The notes below the pieces were generated by a model. It was not told where the DNA came from. It saw nothing but the letters and a program-made list of their open reading frames with translations, and made no database searches. The translations under genes and the position numbers were made by a program. From Phycisphaerae bacterium (GTDB taxonomy: Bacteria; Planctomycetota; Phycisphaerae; Sedimentisphaerales; Anaerobacaceae), in contig JAQTLP010000012.1 of assembly GCA_028714855.1 (NCBI GenBank), positions 1-46,893 of the forward strand: a DNA stretch of 46,893 nt, given 5' to 3'. Below are positions 746-46,893 of this stretch, piece after piece. Within the stretch, counting starts at the first letter, position 1, and every line of letters begins with the position of its first letter.

Positions 746-1327
746 TTATGGGTATTTTAATGCTTGTTTGGCTAATTTGATAAGCGGCAGACGTTTTTTA
801 AACGTATCAGCTGCCGTCCAAGCTGCATATCTCTCTACATCAAATAAATTAGCCGAACAAGCTGCATAAGCCGCATCATTGGCACAAAAAGCCGTACAAT
901 TCATATCAATTGCCGCACGGGCCGCATCAATCGTTCTATCCCTACCATTCAACCAGTTATTAGCCCATTTGTTCCATTTTCTGTTTTTATAGATTTCCTT
1001 AGTAACCAAAATACCAAACGCAATCTTTTGATTCTTTGTTAATTCGGGTAGTGGAATTTCCTGAACCAATCGCATTTTAGTAAAACCAAATTTTAGTCCC
1101 CTATCGGATTTTTTCTCGCCTCCAACCTTTATTTTGAATAATCGGGGGTTTTTTATACCACCGTGGACTGGATTTAAGAATACGGCCAACAATGGAGAAT
1201 TATAGCAATGTAGCCAGTGTTCAGTACACAACTCGCCTTTACCATCGGCTTGTTCCCATTTGCCGATAGTCCATTGAAAACCTCGGTATGTTCCCAAATT
1301 CTGGTCTGTCAGTTTATAATATGGCAT
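746..1327 (-). CDS. Hypothetical protein (193 aa from ATG 1327, RBS GAGGG; longer ORF reaches 1444)
   Basis: ORF; internal Met with SD preferred as start; no recognisable motif. Confidence 0.5.
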   Translation of the reverse strand: MPYYKLTDQNLGTYRGFQWTIGKWEQADGKGELCTEHWLHCYNSPLLAVFLNPVHGGIKNPRLFKIKVGGEKKSDRGLKFGFTKMRLVQEIPLPELTKNQKIAFGILVTKEIYKNRKWNKWANNWLNGRDRTIDAARAAIDMNCTAFCANDAAYAACSANLFDVERYAAWTAADTFKKRLPLIKLAKQALKYP

Positions 1328-1588
1328 TTCAATTCCCTCGGTAAAAAATGCCTGCCGCAGTCGTAAGCTGCGCCGTGCGAGCGGTCGGAGTGATGGACGT
1401 ACGGCAGGCCAACAAGGCTGGTTTGGTTTCAAATTGTCTCGCACGGCTTTTCATAATGTTAGGATTATCGGCGTTCTTCTTAAATCTGTCAAGTGTATTT
1501 TCTTGTTTTTTATGTACTTAACGTCTTAAATATTCATAAGTATTTGCAAAATAACGCAGTTACAATGAGAAAAAATATTTCAAAATAG

Positions 1589-2581: not shown

Positions 2582-3148
2582 TTATTGCTTTTGGGTTATT
2601 TCATATAAATTGTGGGGGTTTTCTTTACTGAAACAAGCATCTAAGCTTTGGCTTGCGAAAACGCTAATTCTTTTTCTGGAACATCCTTTTTTTCTGCCTT
2701 CTTTTATACGCCGTTTTTCTGCGATGAATTTGTATTTTTTGGGCTTTATAATTCTATCTATTTTAGCCCATTTTTTTCGGTACTCTAAGCGTTGTTCTTT
2801 TAATTTTGGGTATTCCGCAAGCTTAGTTTTTCTCCGCAGATTTGCTAATTTGTTGTAGCATTCTTTGCAATTTTTACGCATATTACCAACTGGGTTATGA
2901 GAAAATTCTTCTATGGGTTTTACAATATGACAGATATTACAAATTCTACTTGTCGTTGGTAACGGTTTTGGTTTTGCACGTTTTCTTTTCCACGCTTTCT
3001 GGTAAAAATTAGTTATCTTTCTTTGGCAGTCTTTGCAAATTTTATGAATAAGGCCACCGTTGTGTTGGTAATAAAAATCCGAAAAAGGTTTTTTCTTTTG
3101 GCAATGCCCACAAACCCTTACAACCAACAGTCGTCCTTTTTCTTTCAC
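2582..3148 (-). CDS. Tandem zinc-ribbon protein (two CxxC-x12-F-x-HN-x-G-x-CxxC modules) with a very basic K/R-rich C-terminal half; probable nucleic-acid binder. GTG start.
   Basis: CGHCQKKKPFSDFYYQHNGGLIHKICKDCQRK and CNICHIVKPIEEFSHNPVGNMRKNCKECYNK read in the translation. Confidence 0.5.
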   Translation of the reverse strand: MKEKGRLLVVRVCGHCQKKKPFSDFYYQHNGGLIHKICKDCQRKITNFYQKAWKRKRAKPKPLPTTSRICNICHIVKPIEEFSHNPVGNMRKNCKECYNKLANLRRKTKLAEYPKLKEQRLEYRKKWAKIDRIIKPKKYKFIAEKRRIKEGRKKGCSRKRISVFASQSLDACFSKENPHNLYEITQKQ

Positions 3149-27827: not shown

Positions 27828-29570
27828 ATGTATTGTTTACCAAAATATTTAGCCGATAAATTTCTGGAAGCGTTAAAACGCGGGACTGTAACGCCGGACA
27901 AACTTACTGATATGACCTCTGCCGAAAGAAGGGCGTTTTTTACCGAAATGCTTGGCGAAGAACACGCCGTACAAGTCAATTCGCTGTTTGAGAGCAAGTT
28001 ATTATTAAAAGACCAGCAAAGAGGAATTATCACTTGGGCGAAACAGACTGCCGGAATAAGCAAGCAGGCGCAAAGGGACATTATTTCAAGAGTCGATAAA
28101 ATGACGGAAATTCTTAATCCCGCCACACAGGACGCTTTTCTTGAAGATATAGTAGCTCATAAATTAGATGTTACGGTAACAATGGAACAGGCCGCTAACA
28201 TTTCATCTCTTGGTAAAATAGCCCTCGACAAGAAAATTATTATGGAAGCGTCCGAAAGACGGCTGACCGGCCAGAGGCAGACACCGACCGAGAAAGAATA
28301 CGGTGATGCACGGGTAGCTTTTAGCAATTACATAAGCGACCTCAAAACAAAAGCAAAGCAAAAAAGTGTTTATGAATATTTGCGTATGCCCAGAACGGCA
28401 TTTTCAGAACTGGCGGGACTGGCAAAGGCGTCTAAAGCGTCTTTAGATAACAGTGCAATCCTACGGCAGGGTTTAAAGGTACTTTGGACGCACCCAACAA
28501 TATGGCTTAAAAACTCCGCCAACACTTTTGTGGATATTTGGAAAACGCTCGGCGGTGAAAATGTAATGGACGAAATCAACTCTGATATAGTATCGCGACC
28601 GACTTATGATAATATGATTAAAGATAAACTGGCCGTAGGCGTAATGGAAGAAGCATATCCCACGCACCTGCCCAGCAAAATTCCCGTTCTCGGCAAACTG
28701 TTCAAGGCGAGTGAAGCAGCGTATACGGGATTTATGTATAGAAACAGAGCAGATTTGTATGATTTATATACCGAGATTGCGATAAAATCCGGCTTGCCGA
28801 CAACGACCGATTTGGGTATTGGCAGACTTGTAAATTCCCTAACCAGCAGGGGCAATGTCGGCAGATTAGAACCGATAGCAAGCACTCTTAATAATGTTTT
28901 CTTTGCACCAAGAAACCTTAAAGCAAACTTCGATATTTTAATGGCACACACATTCGATAAAAATCTGAGTCCTTTTGTAAGGAAGCAAGCGGCCATAAAT
29001 CTGGTAAAAATAATAAGTGGAACGGCTGCTATTCTTGTTATTGCAAAAGCAATTGACCCTGACAGTGTAGAGGTTGACCCCCGCAGTGCAAACTTCGGAA
29101 AAATAAGAGTAGGTGATACGAGATTTGACGTTACCGGTGGAATGGCGGGAATAGTTACATTGGCTTCACGTTTAATAGTTACATTGGCTTCACGTTTAAT
29201 AACGATGAAAAGCAAAAGCAGTATTACAGGTAAAACGGTTGATTTATGGTCGCGCAAATACGGTGCGCAAACCGGCAAAGATGTTGTTTATGATTTTTTT
29301 GAGAATAAGTTTTCACCCGCAGCGCAATTAGCTAAGAATATTTTAGAGGGCAGTGATTATCGCGGCAATAAAATAACATTCACGGGAGAGCTTAATACTT
29401 TTATAACACCGCTGCCGGTTACTACTTATCAGGAATTGGCAAACAATCCGAACTCCGCCAATATAATTTTATCTATGATTTTTGAGGAATTGGGTGTCAG
29501 TACGAATACATATTCTAAAAAGAAAAAAGGCAGTAATGTTATTAAGCAACCGAAAACTAAATCGGATTAG
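27828..29570 (+). CDS. Virion-associated protein, 580 aa, containing an exact 24-bp in-frame tandem duplication (IVTLASRL x2)
   Basis: atagttacattggcttcacgttta occurs twice in tandem at 29151..29198. Confidence 0.45.
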   Translation: MYCLPKYLADKFLEALKRGTVTPDKLTDMTSAERRAFFTEMLGEEHAVQVNSLFESKLLLKDQQRGIITWAKQTAGISKQAQRDIISRVDKMTEILNPATQDAFLEDIVAHKLDVTVTMEQAANISSLGKIALDKKIIMEASERRLTGQRQTPTEKEYGDARVAFSNYISDLKTKAKQKSVYEYLRMPRTAFSELAGLAKASKASLDNSAILRQGLKVLWTHPTIWLKNSANTFVDIWKTLGGENVMDEINSDIVSRPTYDNMIKDKLAVGVMEEAYPTHLPSKIPVLGKLFKASEAAYTGFMYRNRADLYDLYTEIAIKSGLPTTTDLGIGRLVNSLTSRGNVGRLEPIASTLNNVFFAPRNLKANFDILMAHTFDKNLSPFVRKQAAINLVKIISGTAAILVIAKAIDPDSVEVDPRSANFGKIRVGDTRFDVTGGMAGIVTLASRLIVTLASRLITMKSKSSITGKTVDLWSRKYGAQTGKDVVYDFFENKFSPAAQLAKNILEGSDYRGNKITFTGELNTFITPLPVTTYQELANNPNSANIILSMIFEELGVSTNTYSKKKKGSNVIKQPKTKSD

Positions 29571-31853: not shown

Positions 31854-32037
31854 GGAACATCTTGACAATCTTGACGAAACATACGAAGATTTAGAAAATG
31901 AAATCAAGGTTATGCACACTGAAGGGCATTTTGCTGATGATATAGTTTTACGGGAAGTTGTGAATATAAAACTGGCAATAGCAAAGGCCAGAAAGAACAT
32001 TTTAGGAAAAGTTAATTTTAAGGAGAACAGATTATGA
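31846..32037 (+). CDS. Small coiled-coil protein (~63 aa from ATG 31846)
   Basis: ORF; weak RBS. Confidence 0.3.
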   Translation, partial: DIKEHLDNLDETYEDLENEIKVMHTEGHFADDIVLREVVNIKLAIAKARKNILGKVNFKENRL

Positions 32038-32267
32038 TTGATTACATTATTTCAAACCTGCCCGCTTTACTCGGAGCGTTGTTGGCTATCGGCGTGGTGT
32101 GGGCTTATGCCAGCAAGATTTTGGTCGTAGTTAAAGAGGTCGCTGATTTGCTTAATGCTATACTGGTAGCCCTTGCCGATAGAAACTTGACCAAAGAGGA
32201 AATTAACACTATCATAGAAGAAGCGAAGCATATTCCGATAGCGATTAAAGGACTTCTGAAAAAGTAA
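32034..32267 (+). CDS. Holin-like small membrane protein, 77 aa
   Basis: N-terminal TM LPALLGALLAIGVVWAYA, charged tail; RBS AAGGAG. Confidence 0.45.
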   Translation: MIDYIISNLPALLGALLAIGVVWAYASKILVVVKEVADLLNAILVALADRNLTKEEINTIIEEAKHIPIAIKGLLKK

Positions 32268-32287
32268 CCTGAAACAAGAGGTGGCTT

Positions 32288-32731
32288 ATGTTGGCTCTTT
32301 TAACGGCAGCATTTCAAGCTATTGCGGCTGTATTTGGTTATATGACCAAAAGTATAATAAGTCTGGCAGATAAGGTCTATAAAGAATATTTCTCGGCAGA
32401 AGTCAAACGCAAAAAAGCCGCCCTCAAAAAAGCTGATGAAGCTATCGACAAAGGCGACCGGCAGGGCTTATTAGACGCAATCAACGATATGAAACGAATC
32501 TTTATTGTTGCAGCACTGTTGATTATTTCCGGTTGCAATCCTTTTGAGCAGGACACTTTAACACCAATATACGCAATTAAAGGTGAAGAACTTCAATTCG
32601 TTAAAACAGTTTATGATGTTAATGACCCTAATAAGGTTGACTATTACAGGATAGAAACAACGGGCAAGCATACAGGGGCGTATCTAAGCAATCGAGTTCT
32701 TAAAAAGATTTTTAAGGTTGAAATAAAATGA
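32288..32731 (+). CDS. Spanin-like protein, 147 aa. It has an N-terminal TM plus charged helix (i-spanin-like) and an in-frame internal signal + lipobox (MKRIFIVAALLIISGC, o-spanin-like).
   Basis: Both features read in the translation; RBS AAGAGGTGG. Confidence 0.45.
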   Translation: MLALLTAAFQAIAAVFGYMTKSIISLADKVYKEYFSAEVKRKKAALKKADEAIDKGDRQGLLDAINDMKRIFIVAALLIISGCNPFEQDTLTPIYAIKGEELQFVKTVYDVNDPNKVDYYRIETTGKHTGAYLSNRVLKKIFKVEIK

Positions 32732-32910
32732 TATTACTAAAAACGACAATTAAGCAATTAAAAAGTGAAAACCAGAAACTCAAACGAAAACTTAAAGACG
32801 TTGCTAAGTTTCTGGAAAGTGATGAGGTTAAGGAAGCCAAAGGCAAATACTGGCCTTCGAGAATCGCCGGATATATACTGGAGTTTCTGGAGAAACTACC
32901 CAAGAGGTAA
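32728..32910 (+). CDS. Small coiled-coil protein, 60 aa
   Basis: ORF with ATGA overlap with the upstream gene. Confidence 0.35.
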   Translation: MILLKTTIKQLKSENQKLKRKLKDVAKFLESDEVKEAKGKYWPSRIAGYILEFLEKLPKR

Positions 32911-32913
32911 ACT

Positions 32914-33009
32914 ATGTACTGCAAAAAATGCCCAAAGAAAAAGTGTCGTAATCGGGAAAAAGACGGATGGTGCTTAAAATGTTTTTCCAAAATAAAAGAT
33001 AAGAAGTAA
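32914..33009 (+). CDS. 31-aa zinc-ribbon microprotein MYCKKCPKKKCRNREKDGWCLKCFSKIKDKK (not in the ORF track)
   Basis: Hand-translated; RBS AAGAGGT 5 nt upstream; CxxC-x13-CxxC. Confidence 0.45.
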   Translation: MYCKKCPKKKCRNREKDGWCLKCFSKIKDKK

Positions 33010-33032
33010 AATCATTTTTCCTCCTCCTCCCG

Positions 33033-33070
33033 ACAGCCCAAGACTGAAAACGTCAAGGGCTGTTTTTATT
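33033..33070 (+). terminator. Intrinsic terminator at the point where the two arms converge: ACAGCCC-17 nt loop-GGGCTGT, then TTTTTATT
   Basis: 7-bp stem + T-run read directly. The T-run overlaps the stop of the minus-strand gene; there is an A-run on the other side. Confidence 0.5.
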
Positions 33071-33623
33071 GCAATACCTTTTCTGCTTCAAACAAGTTGT
33101 CAACATTTGGATAATCAGTTCTAACTATATCCGCACATTGAGCAAGAGTTTCTTTTCTGGCGTAGGCGGCGGCGGCGGCGTAGTCGGCGGCGTAGGCGGC
33201 GTAGTCGGCGGCGGCGGCGGCGGCGGCGGCGTAGGCGGCGGCATAGTCGGCGGCGTAGTCGGCGGCGTAGGCGGCGGTGTTGGCGGCGGCGGCGGCGGCG
33301 TAGGCGGCGTGCCTTACATCATCGAGAGTTACGCCATTTTCACCCCTCGCCCATTGCTCTGCCGTTTCAATAGCTTTTAGTGGTCGCAATTCACCTTTTT
33401 CTATATAAGGCAAAGCAAGTCTGGCACACTTGCAAGCCGTCAAAACCAACTGTTTTCGCTTATCACAGCCCGGTTCGCCGGATAGTTTACCAATTAGCCA
33501 GAGCATGTGGTCTCCTCTTTCACAGACCAACCACGCAGCTTGCATTGAACTAAACCTTTTCCCCCATTCAATAGCTTCTTGGCAAGCACCTAATTTTACA
33601 AGTTTATCAGTCCAGTGTTTCAT
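33066..33623 (-). CDS. Ala-rich heptad-repeat protein (185 aa from ATG 33623, RBS AAAGGAAA). It has an N-terminal Cys/Trp-containing domain followed by (AAYAADY)-type repeats.
   Basis: ...RHAAYAAAAAANTAAYAADYAADYAAAYAAAAAAAADYAAYAADYAAAAAYA...; the longer ORF reaches 33716. Confidence 0.6.
   Translation of the reverse strand: MKHWTDKLVKLGACQEAIEWGKRFSSMQAAWLVCERGDHMLWLIGKLSGEPGCDKRKQLVLTACKCARLALPYIEKGELRPLKAIETAEQWARGENGVTLDDVRHAAYAAAAAANTAAYAADYAADYAAAYAAAAAAAADYAAYAADYAAAAAYARKETLAQCADIVRTDYPNVDNLFEAEKVLQ
33170..33310. repeat. GCC/GGC-based microsatellite-like coding repeat ((GCC)n interspersed with TAC/GAC) encoding the AAYAADY array
   Basis: ggcggcggcggcggcgtaggcggcgtagtcggc... read directly. 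Confidence 0.85.
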
Positions 33624-33734
33624 TTTTTTTCCTTTCTTAAAATTGTTAATAATATCAGGGCGTTGCTTCGGCCTATGAGAAATTGGCATTAGCATATTTT
33701 TATTGGCAACCCACAACGCCCTGCGCTCATTTTG

Positions 33735-34607
33735 TTATTTCTTGTCAATCGCAAAGGGGAGTTCTCGCTTTCTTATACTTTCGGGCAAATCTGTGAAATT
33801 ATGGATTATCTTAAAATGGTCTTTTGTGCCTTTGTGGTATGCCTTGACCCACACCGGCACGCCAGCGGCCTTGCATTGTTCCACTACGCTTTCAATCCAT
33901 TCGCGCGGACAATAACGAGCGTTGGGGCCGGTCTCTGCGCCGACAATACAAAGACTTAGCGAAGATATACCCAACTTTTCCCCCTGCGAATACAACTTAC
34001 CGCAGCTTGTGTTATTCCGAACAACGCCGCTATTTCTCTTTGCCGTAATTCCCTCTTCCGTAGCAATTGGCGTATTTCCAATTTTATTCCATTCTAACAA
34101 ATCTATTGTAGAAATCAAGGGTTCAAATGAAATAAATTTATGTGCCGCCGGTATCTGTAAAAGTATCGGTATTCTTTCGTTTGCATACTGTTGGTTTTCC
34201 GCTGTTACGCCGAGCCAGAGGTTTTTAGGGGGGCATATATCCTTAAAACATTCCGTTATTCTTTCGGCTCTTTTTGTCAACCCTAAAAAGATATGCTGGG
34301 GACATTTTTCTACCGTTACCATTGCGTCAGTGAAAAAAGTATAAGGCACTTCACTATGCCAAAGGTCGTTCCAGATTGAAAATACTGTCGGTTTTCGAGT
34401 ATGCAGGGGAAGGTCAAGATTACCGTGACGGAATTTAATTAACCCCTTCCAGTTGTAACTTTTTATCAAGGCAAATTTATGAAACCTTTTCGCCATTGCC
34501 TCCGACCAACAGTTATCACACGCAGGACTTACTTTGGTGCAACCATCAACCAACTGCCACGCCTTTTGCCAGTAACGCCCTGCCTGTTTCATCTGTTCAA
34601 AATTCAT
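33735..34607 (-). CDS. DUF5131 / phage Gp37-Gp68 family protein, 290 aa
   Basis: N-terminal GCTKVSPACDNCW signature; RBS AAGGAG. Confidence 0.55.
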   Translation of the reverse strand: MNFEQMKQAGRYWQKAWQLVDGCTKVSPACDNCWSEAMAKRFHKFALIKSYNWKGLIKFRHGNLDLPLHTRKPTVFSIWNDLWHSEVPYTFFTDAMVTVEKCPQHIFLGLTKRAERITECFKDICPPKNLWLGVTAENQQYANERIPILLQIPAAHKFISFEPLISTIDLLEWNKIGNTPIATEEGITAKRNSGVVRNNTSCGKLYSQGEKLGISSLSLCIVGAETGPNARYCPREWIESVVEQCKAAGVPVWVKAYHKGTKDHFKIIHNFTDLPESIRKRELPFAIDKK

Positions 34608-34631
34608 TTTTCTGTCTCCTTTATTATCAGG

Positions 34632-35174
34632 TCAAACCAACTTTAAGGCCAGTTTGCCTATCTGCTCTTTTTTCCTGTGGTCTATTTCTTCCGGTGATAA
34701 TATTTCCGGTTTTTTACGGTGCATTAGCTCGTCAAACTGTTTGCGTAGTTCGGCTTTTTCTTCCGGAGTAGGCGGGACAACGGGCGGCTCTATCTTCTTG
34801 TAACTTTCCTGCCGCTTTGCCGCACGCGCCTTAATTGCTTCAATGGTCATATAATCATCAATTATAAAATTGTTTTCCAAGAACCGCCAAAACTGCTTTT
34901 CCTGTCTGTTATCAGGTCTACTTCGTATTAGAAATTGGTATAGAGTCCACGCATAACTCCAAATGCAATTTTTACTTAATAGTACAAGGGCATAATTGTC
35001 TATGGCTTTGCATATTTGCTCAACAGTATAATGCTTAAGGACATCTTTAATGGCAGTTTCCGTTTCGTAGGTTAATTCCCTATGGCTTTTCCAGTTGCCT
35101 TGACCTTTATATCTATTCCAAGAGCTAAAAACGGTTTGAATTTCTTCCGGAGTCGGCGGTTTAAATTTCTTCAT
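34632..35174 (-). CDS. Hypothetical protein, 180 aa
   Basis: ORF. Confidence 0.45.
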   Translation of the reverse strand: MKKFKPPTPEEIQTVFSSWNRYKGQGNWKSHRELTYETETAIKDVLKHYTVEQICKAIDNYALVLLSKNCIWSYAWTLYQFLIRSRPDNRQEKQFWRFLENNFIIDDYMTIEAIKARAAKRQESYKKIEPPVVPPTPEEKAELRKQFDELMHRKKPEILSPEEIDHRKKEQIGKLALKLV

Positions 35175-35238
35175 TTTCCTACCAATAATCTCTCTTACCT
35201 ACTTTACGACCTTTTCCCGCAAAGTCAAAATCTATGTG

Positions 35239-36507
35239 TTATTTACCGTCAGTTGTAACCATTATATTTGGAGGGTTATTACCAGTAGTCCACAGATTTT
35301 GCGGCAAAAGTCCTTGCCATTTGTCAATCCATTTTGCCTGATTCTCAAGCTCTTTAAGTTTTATGAAAGCAGGATTACTGTTGGCTTTGGCGGCAGCATC
35401 GGCAACAAGCTGGATACCCTTTGCTTCTCCCTCGGCTCGTTTTATACGTGCCTGTGCTTCAGCATCGGCAGCCATAACGATAACTTTATTTTTGTCGTCC
35501 TGTGCTTGTTTTAAAGCAAGAGCCACATTCTTTTGCTGTTGGGATACAAAGACATCATCAATGGCTTTTTGAATATCCTTATTCTCGTATTCAAAGCCGC
35601 CAAACATACCAATATTCTGAACTGTTATTCCGCGTTGGGTAAAAAACTCCGTAATTTCCTTAACGACCGCATCACTAATAGTATTCTTAATATTGCGGAG
35701 TTCGTCCATTTTATATCCAGCGGCAACCTGTTGGACTACTTTTTGAATTTTGCCACGAACCTCTAAATCCATAACAGTCGCAAGCGAACCCGTAGGATAC
35801 CAATACAGGAATGTTGCGGCGTCTTTTTCCTGAACGTAAGCAGTACAGGTAAAGCCGGTACTAAACCCGATACTGTCCTGTGATTCTACCCAAATAGCTT
35901 CATTTTTTCCGGTTGTTCCCGTTGTTTCGTTGACTGTCCACTCGCGGGTAACGGGAGTTCTGTCCACCTTGATTACAACGATGTTTGGAATCCAATTGCC
36001 ATTTCGGTTAAAGCGACCCGTTTTCTGCCAGCGATGTGATATTTGAATACGTTTAGTAGCTACCTGCATTTTTTGTAGAGATTCTACTGACTGCATTTTT
36101 TGTTGCAAATCAGTTTTGTTTTCGAGTGGTATTACAAAAGCTGTTTCATTATTTTTAACTTCAACAAATTCTTCTTTGTCGTATGGCTTCGGACAACCCG
36201 TTAATACAAATGACGAGACAGACAAAATAGCCAAAATAGCAATTTTAGCAAGGTGTTTTTGAATTAGTTCTTTTGCCGGTTTCCACCAAACCAAAAGCAA
36301 GATAACGATACAAACAAACCACCCCCATGAACCTGCGCCGGATTGAAGTTGTTGAATAAGACGCAGAGCTTCTCTTGAACCATCTTCGTTCATTTGGCCA
36401 AGAGCAAGGTTTGCGGTAGTGTTGGGCAACACGCCCTGATACAAAGCGATATTTATTGTCGCTACCATTACTACAAATACAGTAGTTAATACAATTCTCG
36501 TTTTCAT
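35239..36507 (-). CDS. Membrane-anchored SPFH / band-7 (stomatin/prohibitin/HflK-C-like) protein, 422 aa
   Basis: N-terminal hydrophobic segments plus a lipobox-like FVLTGC; C-terminal AEAQARIKRAEGEAKGIQLVADA typical of SPFH; RBS AGGAG. Confidence 0.55.
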   Translation of the reverse strand: MKTRIVLTTVFVVMVATINIALYQGVLPNTTANLALGQMNEDGSREALRLIQQLQSGAGSWGWFVCIVILLLVWWKPAKELIQKHLAKIAILAILSVSSFVLTGCPKPYDKEEFVEVKNNETAFVIPLENKTDLQQKMQSVESLQKMQVATKRIQISHRWQKTGRFNRNGNWIPNIVVIKVDRTPVTREWTVNETTGTTGKNEAIWVESQDSIGFSTGFTCTAYVQEKDAATFLYWYPTGSLATVMDLEVRGKIQKVVQQVAAGYKMDELRNIKNTISDAVVKEITEFFTQRGITVQNIGMFGGFEYENKDIQKAIDDVFVSQQQKNVALALKQAQDDKNKVIVMAADAEAQARIKRAEGEAKGIQLVADAAAKANSNPAFIKLKELENQAKWIDKWQGLLPQNLWTTGNNPPNIMVTTDGK

Positions 36508-36544: not shown

Positions 36545-37291
36545 TTATTTAACGCCAAAAGAAAACTTGCCCTGACTACGCTCTTTGGCTAAGCGTTTGT
36601 CGCCAATCTCGCAATACTTTTCAGAAATATCAGCACAAATCCACCTTCGGCCTAATTGCTCGGCGGCAAGGGCGGTAGTGAAAGAACCCGCAAAGGGGTC
36701 GAAAATAAGGTCGTCAGGTTTTGAATGTATTTCAATAAGACGTTTCATCAATTCAAGGGGCTTTTGTGTGGGGTGTTCGTCAAATTGTGGTATGTCTTGA
36801 TTTATTCCCTCAATTACGTTTGAGCATTTTTTGCTTTCGTCATAAAAACTGTAACCATCTTTGCTTTTTGATAGAACAACAATATTTTCATAAGACGGCC
36901 TATATCGCCAACCCAAGCCGATAAATTTCTTCCAAACCAACGTCTGGATTAAGTTAAAATGTTTTATGGCCTCAATCGTGAAAATAGCAGTAACAGGAGT
37001 TTTTCCGCCGCCGCAGCAGCAGCAGCAGCAGCAAGCAATATCTGACAATACCCGCTTGATTTCCGGCAAAGTATCGGCCAATAACAAAAGCCAGTCATTA
37101 TAATCATCGTTTTGTAATCTCTCTTTCCGGTTCGTCCGGTTAGAACAGAAGTTTATCCCGTAAGGGGGGTCTGTTAATGTGAGGTCAATCGCCTTGTCGG
37201 GAATAAGGGACATCAAGTCAATGCAGTCGCAACACACCACGTTGCCAATGGCCTTTGTCCAATCACCTTGCAAATCGTCAATTCTTAACAT
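36545..37291 (-). CDS. Orphan DNA amino-methyltransferase, beta class (motif IV DPPY N-terminal, motif I FDPFAGSFTT C-terminal), with an internal poly-Cys (7xC + GGG) tract
   Basis: TLTDPPYGINF and LIFDPFAGSFTT read in the translation; no adjacent restriction enzyme; RBS GGAGAG. Confidence 0.75.
   Translation of the reverse strand: MLRIDDLQGDWTKAIGNVVCCDCIDLMSLIPDKAIDLTLTDPPYGINFCSNRTNRKERLQNDDYNDWLLLLADTLPEIKRVLSDIACCCCCCCGGGKTPVTAIFTIEAIKHFNLIQTLVWKKFIGLGWRYRPSYENIVVLSKSKDGYSFYDESKKCSNVIEGINQDIPQFDEHPTQKPLELMKRLIEIHSKPDDLIFDPFAGSFTTALAAEQLGRRWICADISEKYCEIGDKRLAKERSQGKFSFGVK
37005..37033. repeat. (GCA)7(CCG)3 on the + strand, equivalent to (TGC)7(GGC)3 in the coding strand of the methyltransferase
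   Basis: Trinucleotide repeat read directly. Confidence 0.9.
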
Positions 37292-46486: not shown

Positions 46487-46893
46487 TGTTTCTCCTTGCT
46501 TTTATTTTTCTTAATCCGATTTTTACGAGGTCAATCTCTTTAATAACTTTACATTTTTTGACTCTGAATTTGCCATCAGAGCCAATAGGTATGGCCACAA
46601 TATCTTTAGCGGTAAATTCGCACAGCATAATTCTATATCCGTCTTTGTATTCTTTGATACACCAGTCGAGGGTTGCAAGATTTATACCGCTACCACATTG
46701 CTCCTTTTCACTGCTATTATAATCAGTAACTTTAAGAGCCATTCCCTTTTTATATATCAAACCTCCATTATAAATACCTTCATAATTGTCTTTAACAATT
46801 TTATATGCCCTGATTTTGGCGGGCTGGTCGAGAAGTAAGTATAACGGAGTTGTAAGATATTTATTCACGCCTTTGGCATAGCGAAGGTCGGCA
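46479..46893 (-). CDS. C-terminal globular domain (~129 aa) of the pentapeptide-repeat protein. Reading upstream of the GTG at 46868 continues in frame as ...ADLRYAKG, so this is the 3' part of the gene that starts at 495 across the junction.
   Basis: Frame continuity verified codon by codon across 46869..46893 = 103..127. Confidence 0.7.
   Translation of the reverse strand, partial: ADLRYAKGVNKYLTTPLYLLLDQPAKIRAYKIVKDNYEGIYNGGLIYKKGMALKVTDYNSSEKEQCGSGINLATLDWCIKEYKDGYRIMLCEFTAKDIVAIPIGSDGKFRVKKCKVIKEIDLVKIGLRKIKARRNND

Follow-up and report, generated by a model that had tools for sequence, protein, structure and literature searches.

Introduction

The Imm5 family has been described as mostly alpha-helical and as associated with DYW deaminases and CdiA-CT toxins (Zhang et al. 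2012, PMC3482391), and Pfam holds, as PF21805 (Imm5_like), an 'Imm-5 like putative immunity protein' family on which our literature search found no paper, experimental ones included. Here we analyse an Imm5-like gene located at 33066..33623 on the minus strand of a 46,893-nt stretch of DNA (contig JAQTLP010000012.1; the whole stretch is called the window hereafter), which is a phage contig binned with a Phycisphaerae metagenome-assembled genome (MAG). The product of 185 aa passes the PF21805 gathering threshold over aa 55-165 and, like Imm5, is all-helical in our structural model. It differs from Imm5 in that its gene is phage-borne and has no adjacent toxin, polyimmunity locus or fusion to other Imm domains, in that it carries an extra conserved N-terminal extension of 54 aa, and in that its alanine-rich part is a triplet-derived tandem array. 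A conserved R and D are listed for Imm5; R68 and acidic residues of the protein studied here are candidate counterparts. Similarity to SsdAI, the immunity protein of the DYW-like ssDNA deaminase toxin SsdA (PDB 7JTU chain B; PMC7901873), is not statistically significant, and no sequence match to it was obtained even at E<=10.

For the array itself, two groups of described systems offer a comparison. Among the fish genes for type I antifreeze proteins, the preferred Ala codon differs from lineage to lineage, which has been attributed to high mutability via unequal recombination (PMC3855684), and the lineage-specific use of a single Ala codon is the feature that these genes have in common with the family analysed here. 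With variable-number tandem repeats (VNTRs), contingency loci and unstable poly-alanine (GCN)n tracts, the array shares short tandem units, length alleles in multiples of three and a hairpin-forming G-rich strand. Classical bacterial contingency loci, however, switch on and off by frameshift, whereas here the frame is kept and a protein segment is resized and re-patterned; moreover, the array resides in a phage non-structural gene and not in a surface antigen.

The locus encodes a member of the Imm5_like family

The minus-strand locus 33066..33623 is a genuine gene and not a chance repeat. Its coding sequence, delimited by the open reading frame (ORF), the Pfam match and the homologues, runs from an ATG at 33623-33621, read from the sequence, to a TAA stop codon at 33066-33068. 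The mechanical ORF list offers a longer alternative start at an upstream in-frame TTG (33716), but the ATG is preferred because homologues begin at the same MK.W. A Shine-Dalgarno-like AAGGA, read directly at 33630..33634 of the minus strand, 6 nt 5' of the ATG, may act in initiation. The protein is identical to MDD5381875.1 ('hypothetical protein PHG53_09615 [Phycisphaerae bacterium]'), and the protein sequence quoted in an earlier reading of this DNA, made from the letters and a list of ORFs (the sequence-only reading), agrees with the ORF translation.

We are highly confident both that the protein belongs to the family and that the array is hypervariable. PF21805 was matched with 42.7 bits and E=6.3e-11 (gathering cut-off, 25 bits), covering profile positions 7-117 of 129, and 17 of 28 close homologues match the same model, while the Pfam scan of the protein gave no match to PF14423 (Imm5) at E<=1. 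In PHROGs, a weak match (E=8.4e-5) was obtained to phrog_18326, a family to which PHROGs assigns no function. A word-indexed protein search returned more than 2,200 matches, the closest being 50-66% identical over the full length, and an exhaustive profile search of 1.84 billion cluster representatives yielded 7,124 clusters (at 50% identity) at E<=1e-3, 3,608 at E<=1e-10 and 758 at E<=1e-30, nearly all of them from uncultured phages and MAGs. The sequence-only reading had taken the protein to be unusual; it is instead a member of Imm5_like (PF21805)/PHROG 18326, and the whole family bears such arrays.

Relatives are carried by 188 IMG/VR contigs. The loci sampled for the comparisons below comprised 80 of these, 45 from GTDB species genomes and several exact-protein loci. 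The genome matches were all MAGs, from many phyla and including one labelled as an archaeon, and most of them lay on contigs of phage size, the remaining few on large contigs or a chromosome. Against a collection of 50,697 GenBank phage records, neither blastn of positions 32000-36000 nor tblastn of the full protein gave a match, and tblastn of the N-terminal 105 aa gave a single weak one, to an archaeal virus; the family is essentially absent from this collection. The archaeal-virus homologue, vir526_00023 (locus L134, 2471-2998 of BK063670.1; Caudoviricetes sp. vir526, host Methanomicrobiales), is annotated as phrog_18326 and shares with the protein of the window the GAC...W..C.R.DWMLW...C.C motifs and an Ala-rich tandem array. 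The two proteins are, however, 39% identical over only 59 residues, vir526_00023 does not have C163, and its array consists of the 12-nt units GCC-GCT-AGT-GCC and GCC-GCT-AGG-GAC (AASA/AARD), in contrast to the GCC, TAC and GAC codons of the window.

Conserved flanks enclose an alanine-rich array

Three parts can be distinguished in the protein. The conserved N-terminal part (aa 1-105, 33309..33623, minus strand) is delimited by an alignment of 120 homologues, on which conservation was scored, by its AlphaFold2 predicted local distance difference test (pLDDT) values of ~85-96 and by its sequence of normal complexity. It is followed by the hypervariable Ala-X array (aa 106-155, AAYAAAAAANTAAYAADYAADYAAAYAAAAAAAADYAAYAADYAAAAAYA; 33159..33308, minus strand), recognised from Tandem Repeats Finder output, unit spacing, the codon table and the alleles of relatives, and by a conserved C-terminal segment (aa 156-185, RKETLAQCADIVRTDYPNVD...; RKETLAQCADIVRTDYPNVDNLFEAEKVLQ; 33069..33158, minus strand), which contains C163 and is delimited by the same alignment. 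The N-terminal domain of the sequence-only reading is therefore present, but its conserved part extends over about 105 aa and not ~75 aa; the 30-aa C-terminal segment (RKETLAQCADIVRTDYP...) was absent from that description.

In the 120 homologues, C14, W31, W42, C66 and R68 are invariant. Conservation of at least 90% was found for C34, D38, C64, E78 and C163, for the GDWMLW motif and the E-x-R-P-L...I..AE.WA motif, and for the C-terminal L..CA.IVR..YP (L160, C163, A164, I166, V167, R168, Y171 and P172); the E78-x-R80-P81...W91-A-R-G-E motif of the N-terminal part likewise consists of columns that are invariant or conserved to at least 90%. The pattern of conserved cysteines suggests that C14, C34, C64 and C66, with or without C163, may form a structural metal site. 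Between these flanks, the Ala-rich middle is unalignable and variable in length across the homologues.

Arrays are dominated by one alanine codon per lineage

The array of the window (aa 106-155) comprises 35 Ala, 9 Tyr, 4 Asp, 1 Asn and 1 Thr, encoded by 35 GCC, 8 TAC, 1 TAT, 4 GAC, 1 AAC and 1 ACC codons, so that GCC accounts for 35 of 35 Ala codons and 49 of the 50 codons end in C. The codon table thus bears out the proposed origin of the array in a GCC triplet repeat interrupted by TAC and GAC. Outside the array only 1 of 13 Ala codons in the same gene is GCC, and in 21 long ORFs of the same genome GCC makes up 31% of 809 Ala codons; by simple arithmetic (0.31^35), 35 of 35 would arise by chance with a probability of ~2e-18, and the array is therefore real, far beyond chance. 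Its G+C content, calculated from the codon counts, is ~83%, compared with roughly 36-50% for the genome. Tandem Repeats Finder reported the array at 33165..33310 with periods of 9, 12 and 21 and a score of up to 146, and a repeat search found copy spacings of solely 9 and 12 nt, which correspond to units of three and four codons. The heptad array of the sequence-only reading is accordingly a periodic Ala/Tyr pattern, as had been claimed, but one of mixed 3- and 4-residue units. In DNA folding, the G-rich strand of the array forms imperfect hairpins (-61 kcal/mol, z=-6.1), whereas the C-rich strand showed no comparable hairpin folding.

The same homogeneity, with other codons, was observed in relatives. 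In a survey of 55 arrays (54 loci and the window), the dominant Ala codon had a median share per array of 0.98 and was GCC in 33 arrays, GCT in 15, GCG in 4 and GCA in 3, whereas the Ala codons outside the array in the same genes were mixed. The non-Ala codons usually match the third base, with TAC/GAC/AAC accompanying GCC and TAT/GAT/ACT accompanying GCT. Some arrays consist of 9-nt units with position-specific codons, GCA-GCC-[C/T/G]AC or GCT-GCC-NNT, and another type of 9-nt unit, GCT-GCG-[G/A/T]GG, encodes AAG/AAR/AAW. Such codon patterns, uniform within an array yet different from one lineage to the next, are the mark of concerted evolution, in which arrays repeatedly contract and re-expand; without it, synonymous third-position differences would be expected to build up no more slowly than the many differences at first and second positions that separate Ala, Asp and Tyr codons.

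Close relatives differ in array length and keep the reading frame

The length of the array ranges from 14 to 105 aa (median 48) among the 120 closest homologues. Eight non-trivial protein pairs have a 100% identical N-terminal anchor of 88 aa and the same C-terminal tail, but different arrays. Clusters at 90% identity hold alleles that differ in the array only, by 7 to 32 aa (for example +32 aa in P0036 vs P0141, -11 aa in P0124 and +7 aa in P0144), and also show single Tyr/Asp/Asn exchanges within it; the P0084 cluster contains six alleles of 148-173 aa.

A direct comparison at the nucleotide level was made for the P0084 lineage. Loci L128 and L129 are identical at 1400 of 1400 positions upstream and 1400 of 1400 downstream of arrays that measure 99 and 66 nt, respectively. 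L132, with an array of 57 nt, is identical to L128 at 1400/1400 upstream and 410/410 downstream positions, and in L131, whose upstream region is 99% identical, the array of 132 nt is explained by a 33-nt duplication of AAAAYAADAAY. The 66-nt allele occurs in an ENA record (L129) and a JGI record (L130), and the 57-nt allele in two samples (L132 and L133). Length polymorphism, which the sequence-only reading had proposed to look for in related phages, is thus found in this related lineage as 57-, 66- and 99-nt alleles with identical flanks. Every allele length is a multiple of 3, and the C-terminal segment is in frame in 120 of 120 homologues. The features by which VNTRs are recognised, namely near-identical head-to-tail units, copy-number alleles with identical flanks (here in a homologous lineage) and a preserved frame, were all observed. 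At the level of the family, these in-frame alleles support the suggestion of a repeat-driven hypervariable accessory gene.

Array composition and predicted structure

Across the arrays of 256 family members, the residues are 65% Ala, 13% Tyr, 7.3% Asp, 3.8% Ser, 2.2% Val, 2.0% Thr, 1.8% Asn, 1.0% Gly and 0.25% Pro, so that Tyr represents 37%, Gly 2.8% and Pro 0.7% of the non-Ala residues. Tyr is two nucleotide changes away from any Ala codon, whereas Pro and Gly are one-step neighbours. The dominance of the two-step Tyr and the near absence of the one-step Pro and Gly indicate that selection favours a helix bearing aromatic and acidic side chains. Throughout the family, the spacing of non-Ala residues is mostly 3, then 4 residues, with a period of ~3.4-3.6 and a Fourier peak at 105 degrees per residue; the corresponding peak of the Ala/non-Ala pattern in the window lies at 100 degrees. 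As 100-105 degrees corresponds to the alpha-helical/heptad period, the non-Ala residues are expected to form a stripe on one face of a helix.

An AlphaFold2 model, calculated with the 120-sequence alignment, is all-helical, with 11 helices and no strands (mean pLDDT 81.3, predicted template modelling score 0.79). The pLDDT is 85-97 over the N-terminal part and the C-terminal helix, reaching 97 around aa 160-170. For a homologue with a 105-aa array, AlphaFold2 likewise predicted a helical fold, with array helices of 35, 26 and 33 residues, the distal part being of low confidence. The models fit an antiparallel helical excursion whose length would follow that of the array and which would be anchored in the conserved base. 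Together with the Fourier analysis, which places the non-Ala residues on one face, they agree with the amphipathic Ala-rich helix of the sequence-only reading. When the PDB was searched by sequence with the profile built on 120 sequences, no meaningful match emerged, even at E<=10.

Proposed mechanism and function

The overall explanation that we favour, and which we consider reasonably probable, is that the gene encodes a phage Imm5-like helical protein with a slippage-driven hypervariable array, possibly acting as a binder or inhibitor. In this model, the N-terminal 105 residues and the C-terminal helix would form a Cys/Trp-rich base, possibly stabilised by metal, from which the Ala-X array would project as antiparallel helices, i.e. 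as a helical hairpin of variable length. The array, whose 9- and 12-nt units go back to one Ala codon, would evolve by slipped-strand mispairing or unequal recombination, and its units would be gained, lost and shuffled in frame far faster than substitutions arise in the flanks. Such a turnover would homogenise each lineage to one Ala codon and leave close relatives with different lengths and different Tyr/Asp/Asn patterns, while selection would keep the array helical and Tyr-rich. The DNA hairpins of the G-rich strand (-61 kcal/mol) lend mechanistic plausibility to slippage.

With respect to function, the protein may be a stoichiometric binder or inhibitor whose target is an effector of the host or of a competitor, in immunity or in anti-defence, with the array serving as a variable contact or reach element. 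This part of the explanation is tentative, being drawn by analogy with Imm5-type proteins, which are predicted to bind and neutralise DYW-like deaminase and CdiA-CT toxins. Equally tentative is the idea that the array is a selected, slippage-driven generator of diversity, an in-frame 'contingency cassette' that would continually re-tune the hairpin length and the Tyr/Asp surface of a phage inhibitor directed against a rapidly evolving effector of the host or of a competitor.

Several observations weigh against this explanation and should be set beside it. The functions of Imm5 and Imm5_like are themselves computational predictions only, and searches with PADLOC and NCBIfam gave no match for the Imm5-like protein. 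When 1,131 neighbour ORFs were clustered, no cluster occurred in more than 6 of 126 loci, so that there is no conserved neighbour, and no toxin domain was seen among the 25 families listed of the 50 matched by 150 immediate neighbours from ~80 loci. The genomic context of an immunity protein is therefore absent, although the sequence criterion for PF21805 is still passed. The array of the window is represented by one contig, the sole member of its 90% cluster, so that its hypervariability is deduced from the signature that it shares with relatives; at 150 nt, it also exceeds the 127-nt terminal overlap of the contig, a length which hints at the assembler k-mer. The pLDDT is below 50 for aa 119-149 within the array, and the hairpin geometry is tentative. 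Finally, the adaptive value of the array variation is something that we infer.

Within its family, which is very large and part of the phage 'dark matter', the gene is ordinary; what the comparison adds is a fast-mutating segment that preserves the frame. Molecular arms races usually leave this signature, a conserved scaffold joined to a hypervariable segment of constrained composition, which makes the family a good candidate for a function in anti-defence or immunity that has so far gone unrecognised. Variation by in-frame instability of a simple sequence repeat is of a known kind, whereas the hypervariability of this family appears to be undescribed; a literature search found nothing on hypervariable Ala or triplet-repeat arrays in phage genes. 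The family would exemplify simple-sequence-repeat hypervariation in viruses of prokaryotes. If the model is correct, it would represent a route to localised hypervariation of phage proteins distinct from diversity-generating retroelements (DGRs) and invertible tail-fibre cassettes, operating in thousands of uncultured phage lineages, on contigs from the bins of many bacterial phyla, as well as in at least one archaeal virus. In practical terms, such arrays appear to break metagenomic phage assemblies, whose contigs frequently end in them, and they could serve as strain-level markers for phage populations.

Alternative explanations

The main rival holds that the array is an unstable but functionally neutral low-complexity linker, whose variation is a by-product of triplet instability. 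In its favour, there is good support for the instability as such, the protein has no known partner or phenotype, the array pLDDT is low, and lengths from 14 to 105 aa are tolerated among the 120 closest homologues with no loss of the flanks. A neutral linker would not, however, readily account for the retention of an array in every full-length homologue, nor for a composition as strongly non-random as that given above for the non-Ala residues, which moreover hold an alpha-helical period of ~3.4; the Pfam model itself also spans the array region. We therefore regard this rival as unlikely and the array as probably not just junk.

It is improbable that the array alleles are artefacts of short-read assembly, i.e. 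collapsed or chimeric repeat paths over an array that is in truth stable. For de Bruijn graphs, the internal repeats of 9 and 12 nt can be a source of confusion, and of the 58 IMG/VR contigs that carry the gene at least 8 terminate in or at the array. However, alleles of 57-132 nt are shorter than the k=141 suggested by contig names (k141_...), so that single k-mers or reads should span them, which makes an artefact unlikely. Separate records moreover yielded identical alleles (L129 in ENA and L130 in JGI; L132 and L133 in two samples), and the lineage-specific homogeneity of a single codon cannot arise from assembly. Among the contigs that end in or at the array are L005, L008, L010, L013, L018, L027, L057 and L063; these ends fit either repeat-induced graph breaks or population heterogeneity.

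The sequence-only reading considered an antifreeze-like helix and a structural mimic, and we weighed these together with a DNA mimic and a purely structural coiled-coil element; all are very improbable. An Ala-rich amphipathic helix and the lineage-specific Ala-codon bias are indeed shared with type I fish antifreeze (PMC3855684). The period in the present family, however, is ~3.5 residues with Tyr and Asp, not an 11-residue Thr repeat, and Thr makes up just 2% of the array residues. Merely 4 of the 50 array residues in the window are acidic, which is not a DNA-like charge array, and no evidence supporting a mimic was found. In addition, the array belongs to a protein with a conserved globular base, from an intracellular immunity-type family, and the gene lies in the phage non-structural arm, among replication and recombination genes.

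A DGR or another form of templated hypermutation was rejected. The target proteins of phage DGRs likewise combine a conserved scaffold with a localised hypervariable segment, and the arrays of the GCC type consist entirely of NNC codons (GCC, TAC, GAC, AAC and ACC), which superficially resemble the set produced by adenine mutagenesis of AAC. Here, however, no reverse transcriptase was found among the ORFs scanned by Pfam and PHROGs (most, but not all, of the long ORFs), the window contains no second copy or template repeat of the region, and there are no adenine-specific substitutions. What separates the alleles are indels the size of a unit, a kind of change that DGRs do not produce, and NNT or NNG arrays occur in other lineages.

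The notion that the tract is a non-coding spacer, or that the expressed product is the 103-aa poly-Gly/Val ORF listed mechanically at 33069..33380 on the plus strand, which is present and open as the sequence-only reading had listed it but is merely the antisense of the array and not a gene, has next to nothing in its favour, because the conservation of both flanks in more than 2,200 homologues and the Pfam match sit exclusively in the minus-strand frame, and because the Gly/Val product would not be conserved, its residues being wholly altered in lineages whose arrays use GCT, GCG or GCA.

Phage genome and neighbouring genes

The window is probably a complete podovirus-like phage genome of ~46.8 kb. 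Positions 1-127 are identical to positions 46767-46893, and this terminal overlap of 127 nt indicates a circular assembly and hence a probably complete genome. A plus-strand block at 6.2-32.7 kb contains a large terminase, a portal/T7-type head-tail connector, a GP7-type major capsid protein and tail proteins, and a minus-strand block contains an N6/N4 DNA methylase, an HNH endonuclease, endonuclease I, DUF5131 and SPFH proteins. The Imm5-like gene is the last of this minus-strand non-structural arm, before the convergent late block, so that its neighbours are the DUF5131 gene and the end of the late block. Directly past its stop codon, at the junction of the convergent blocks, lies a hairpin (33033..33063) in which a stem is followed by TTTTTATT on the plus strand, a T-run. 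RNA folding gave -17.9 kcal/mol with z=-1.6, which alone is not significant, and a promoter and terminator scan around the gene performed no better than on shuffled sequences; from its position and T-run, the hairpin is a putative terminator. 'Early' expression and an anti-defence role of the gene are plausible from its location.

In the relatives inspected as examples, the gene lies among small early genes, near recombination and replication modules, methylase genes and Lar-type genes. Pfam matches of the 150 immediate neighbours included ERF, RecT, RecA, exonucleases, ligases, methylases, integrase, Lar and helix-turn-helix proteins. When 19 proteins of the window were compared by tblastn with 127 loci, the methylase recurred in 7, DUF5131 in 2 and HNH in 2, and a few others recurred as well. 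The Imm5-like gene is thus an accessory gene of phage non-structural regions that stands alone and is horizontally mobile.

The upstream neighbour, the DUF5131 protein (33735-34607, minus strand; Pfam E=1.3e-51), shows sub-threshold similarity to TIGR04471, 'radical SAM mobile pair protein A', and its adjacency to the Imm5-like gene recurs in L022 and L086. Two genes beyond it, an SPFH/Band-7 protein of 422 aa (35239-36507, minus strand) matches a PHROG 'lipoprotein' family. DUF5131 and SPFH proteins are unusual cargo for a phage.

The two further coding repeats that the sequence-only reading had reported in the window were both found. A 15-nt unit repeated 18 times at 109-381 of the minus strand is open as canonical pentapeptide repeats (ADLRS/ANLRY) and runs off the start of the window; it does not appear in the ORF list, since the contig is a circular assembly, in which the ORF probably continues across the junction. 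The second of these repeats is (GCA)7 at 37013-37033 of the plus strand, which encodes a run of seven Cys (DIACCCCCCCGGGK) in the N6/N4 methyltransferase at 36545-37291 of the minus strand. This enzyme otherwise looks intact, with its DPPY motif present, and the Cys run is odd for the enzyme family. A perfect 24-nt tandem repeat of 2.2 copies was also noted at 29150-29201 (plus strand), in a 580-aa ORF (27828-29570) that presumably encodes a tail fibre or spike.

A DUF7666 protein of 232 aa (746-1444, minus strand) has a C-terminus (NNWLNGRDRTIDAARAA...DAAYAA...YAAWTAAD) that resembles the W-A-R-G-E-x-x-V-T-L-D-D-V-R-H-A-A-Y-A-A junction and the Ala-X pattern of the Imm5-like protein, but has no repeat at the DNA level. 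No homology between the two could be demonstrated: in spite of the similar W..G...T[IL]D..R.AA motif, hhalign against the family profile gave a probability of 7%. At the end of the late block, an ORF of 147 aa (32288-32731, plus strand) weakly matches a Cor superinfection-exclusion PHROG (E=2e-4). An ORF of 188 aa at 2582-3148 (minus strand) carries an Stc1 domain (PF12898, E=4e-6), which is Cys-rich and not commonly noted in phages.

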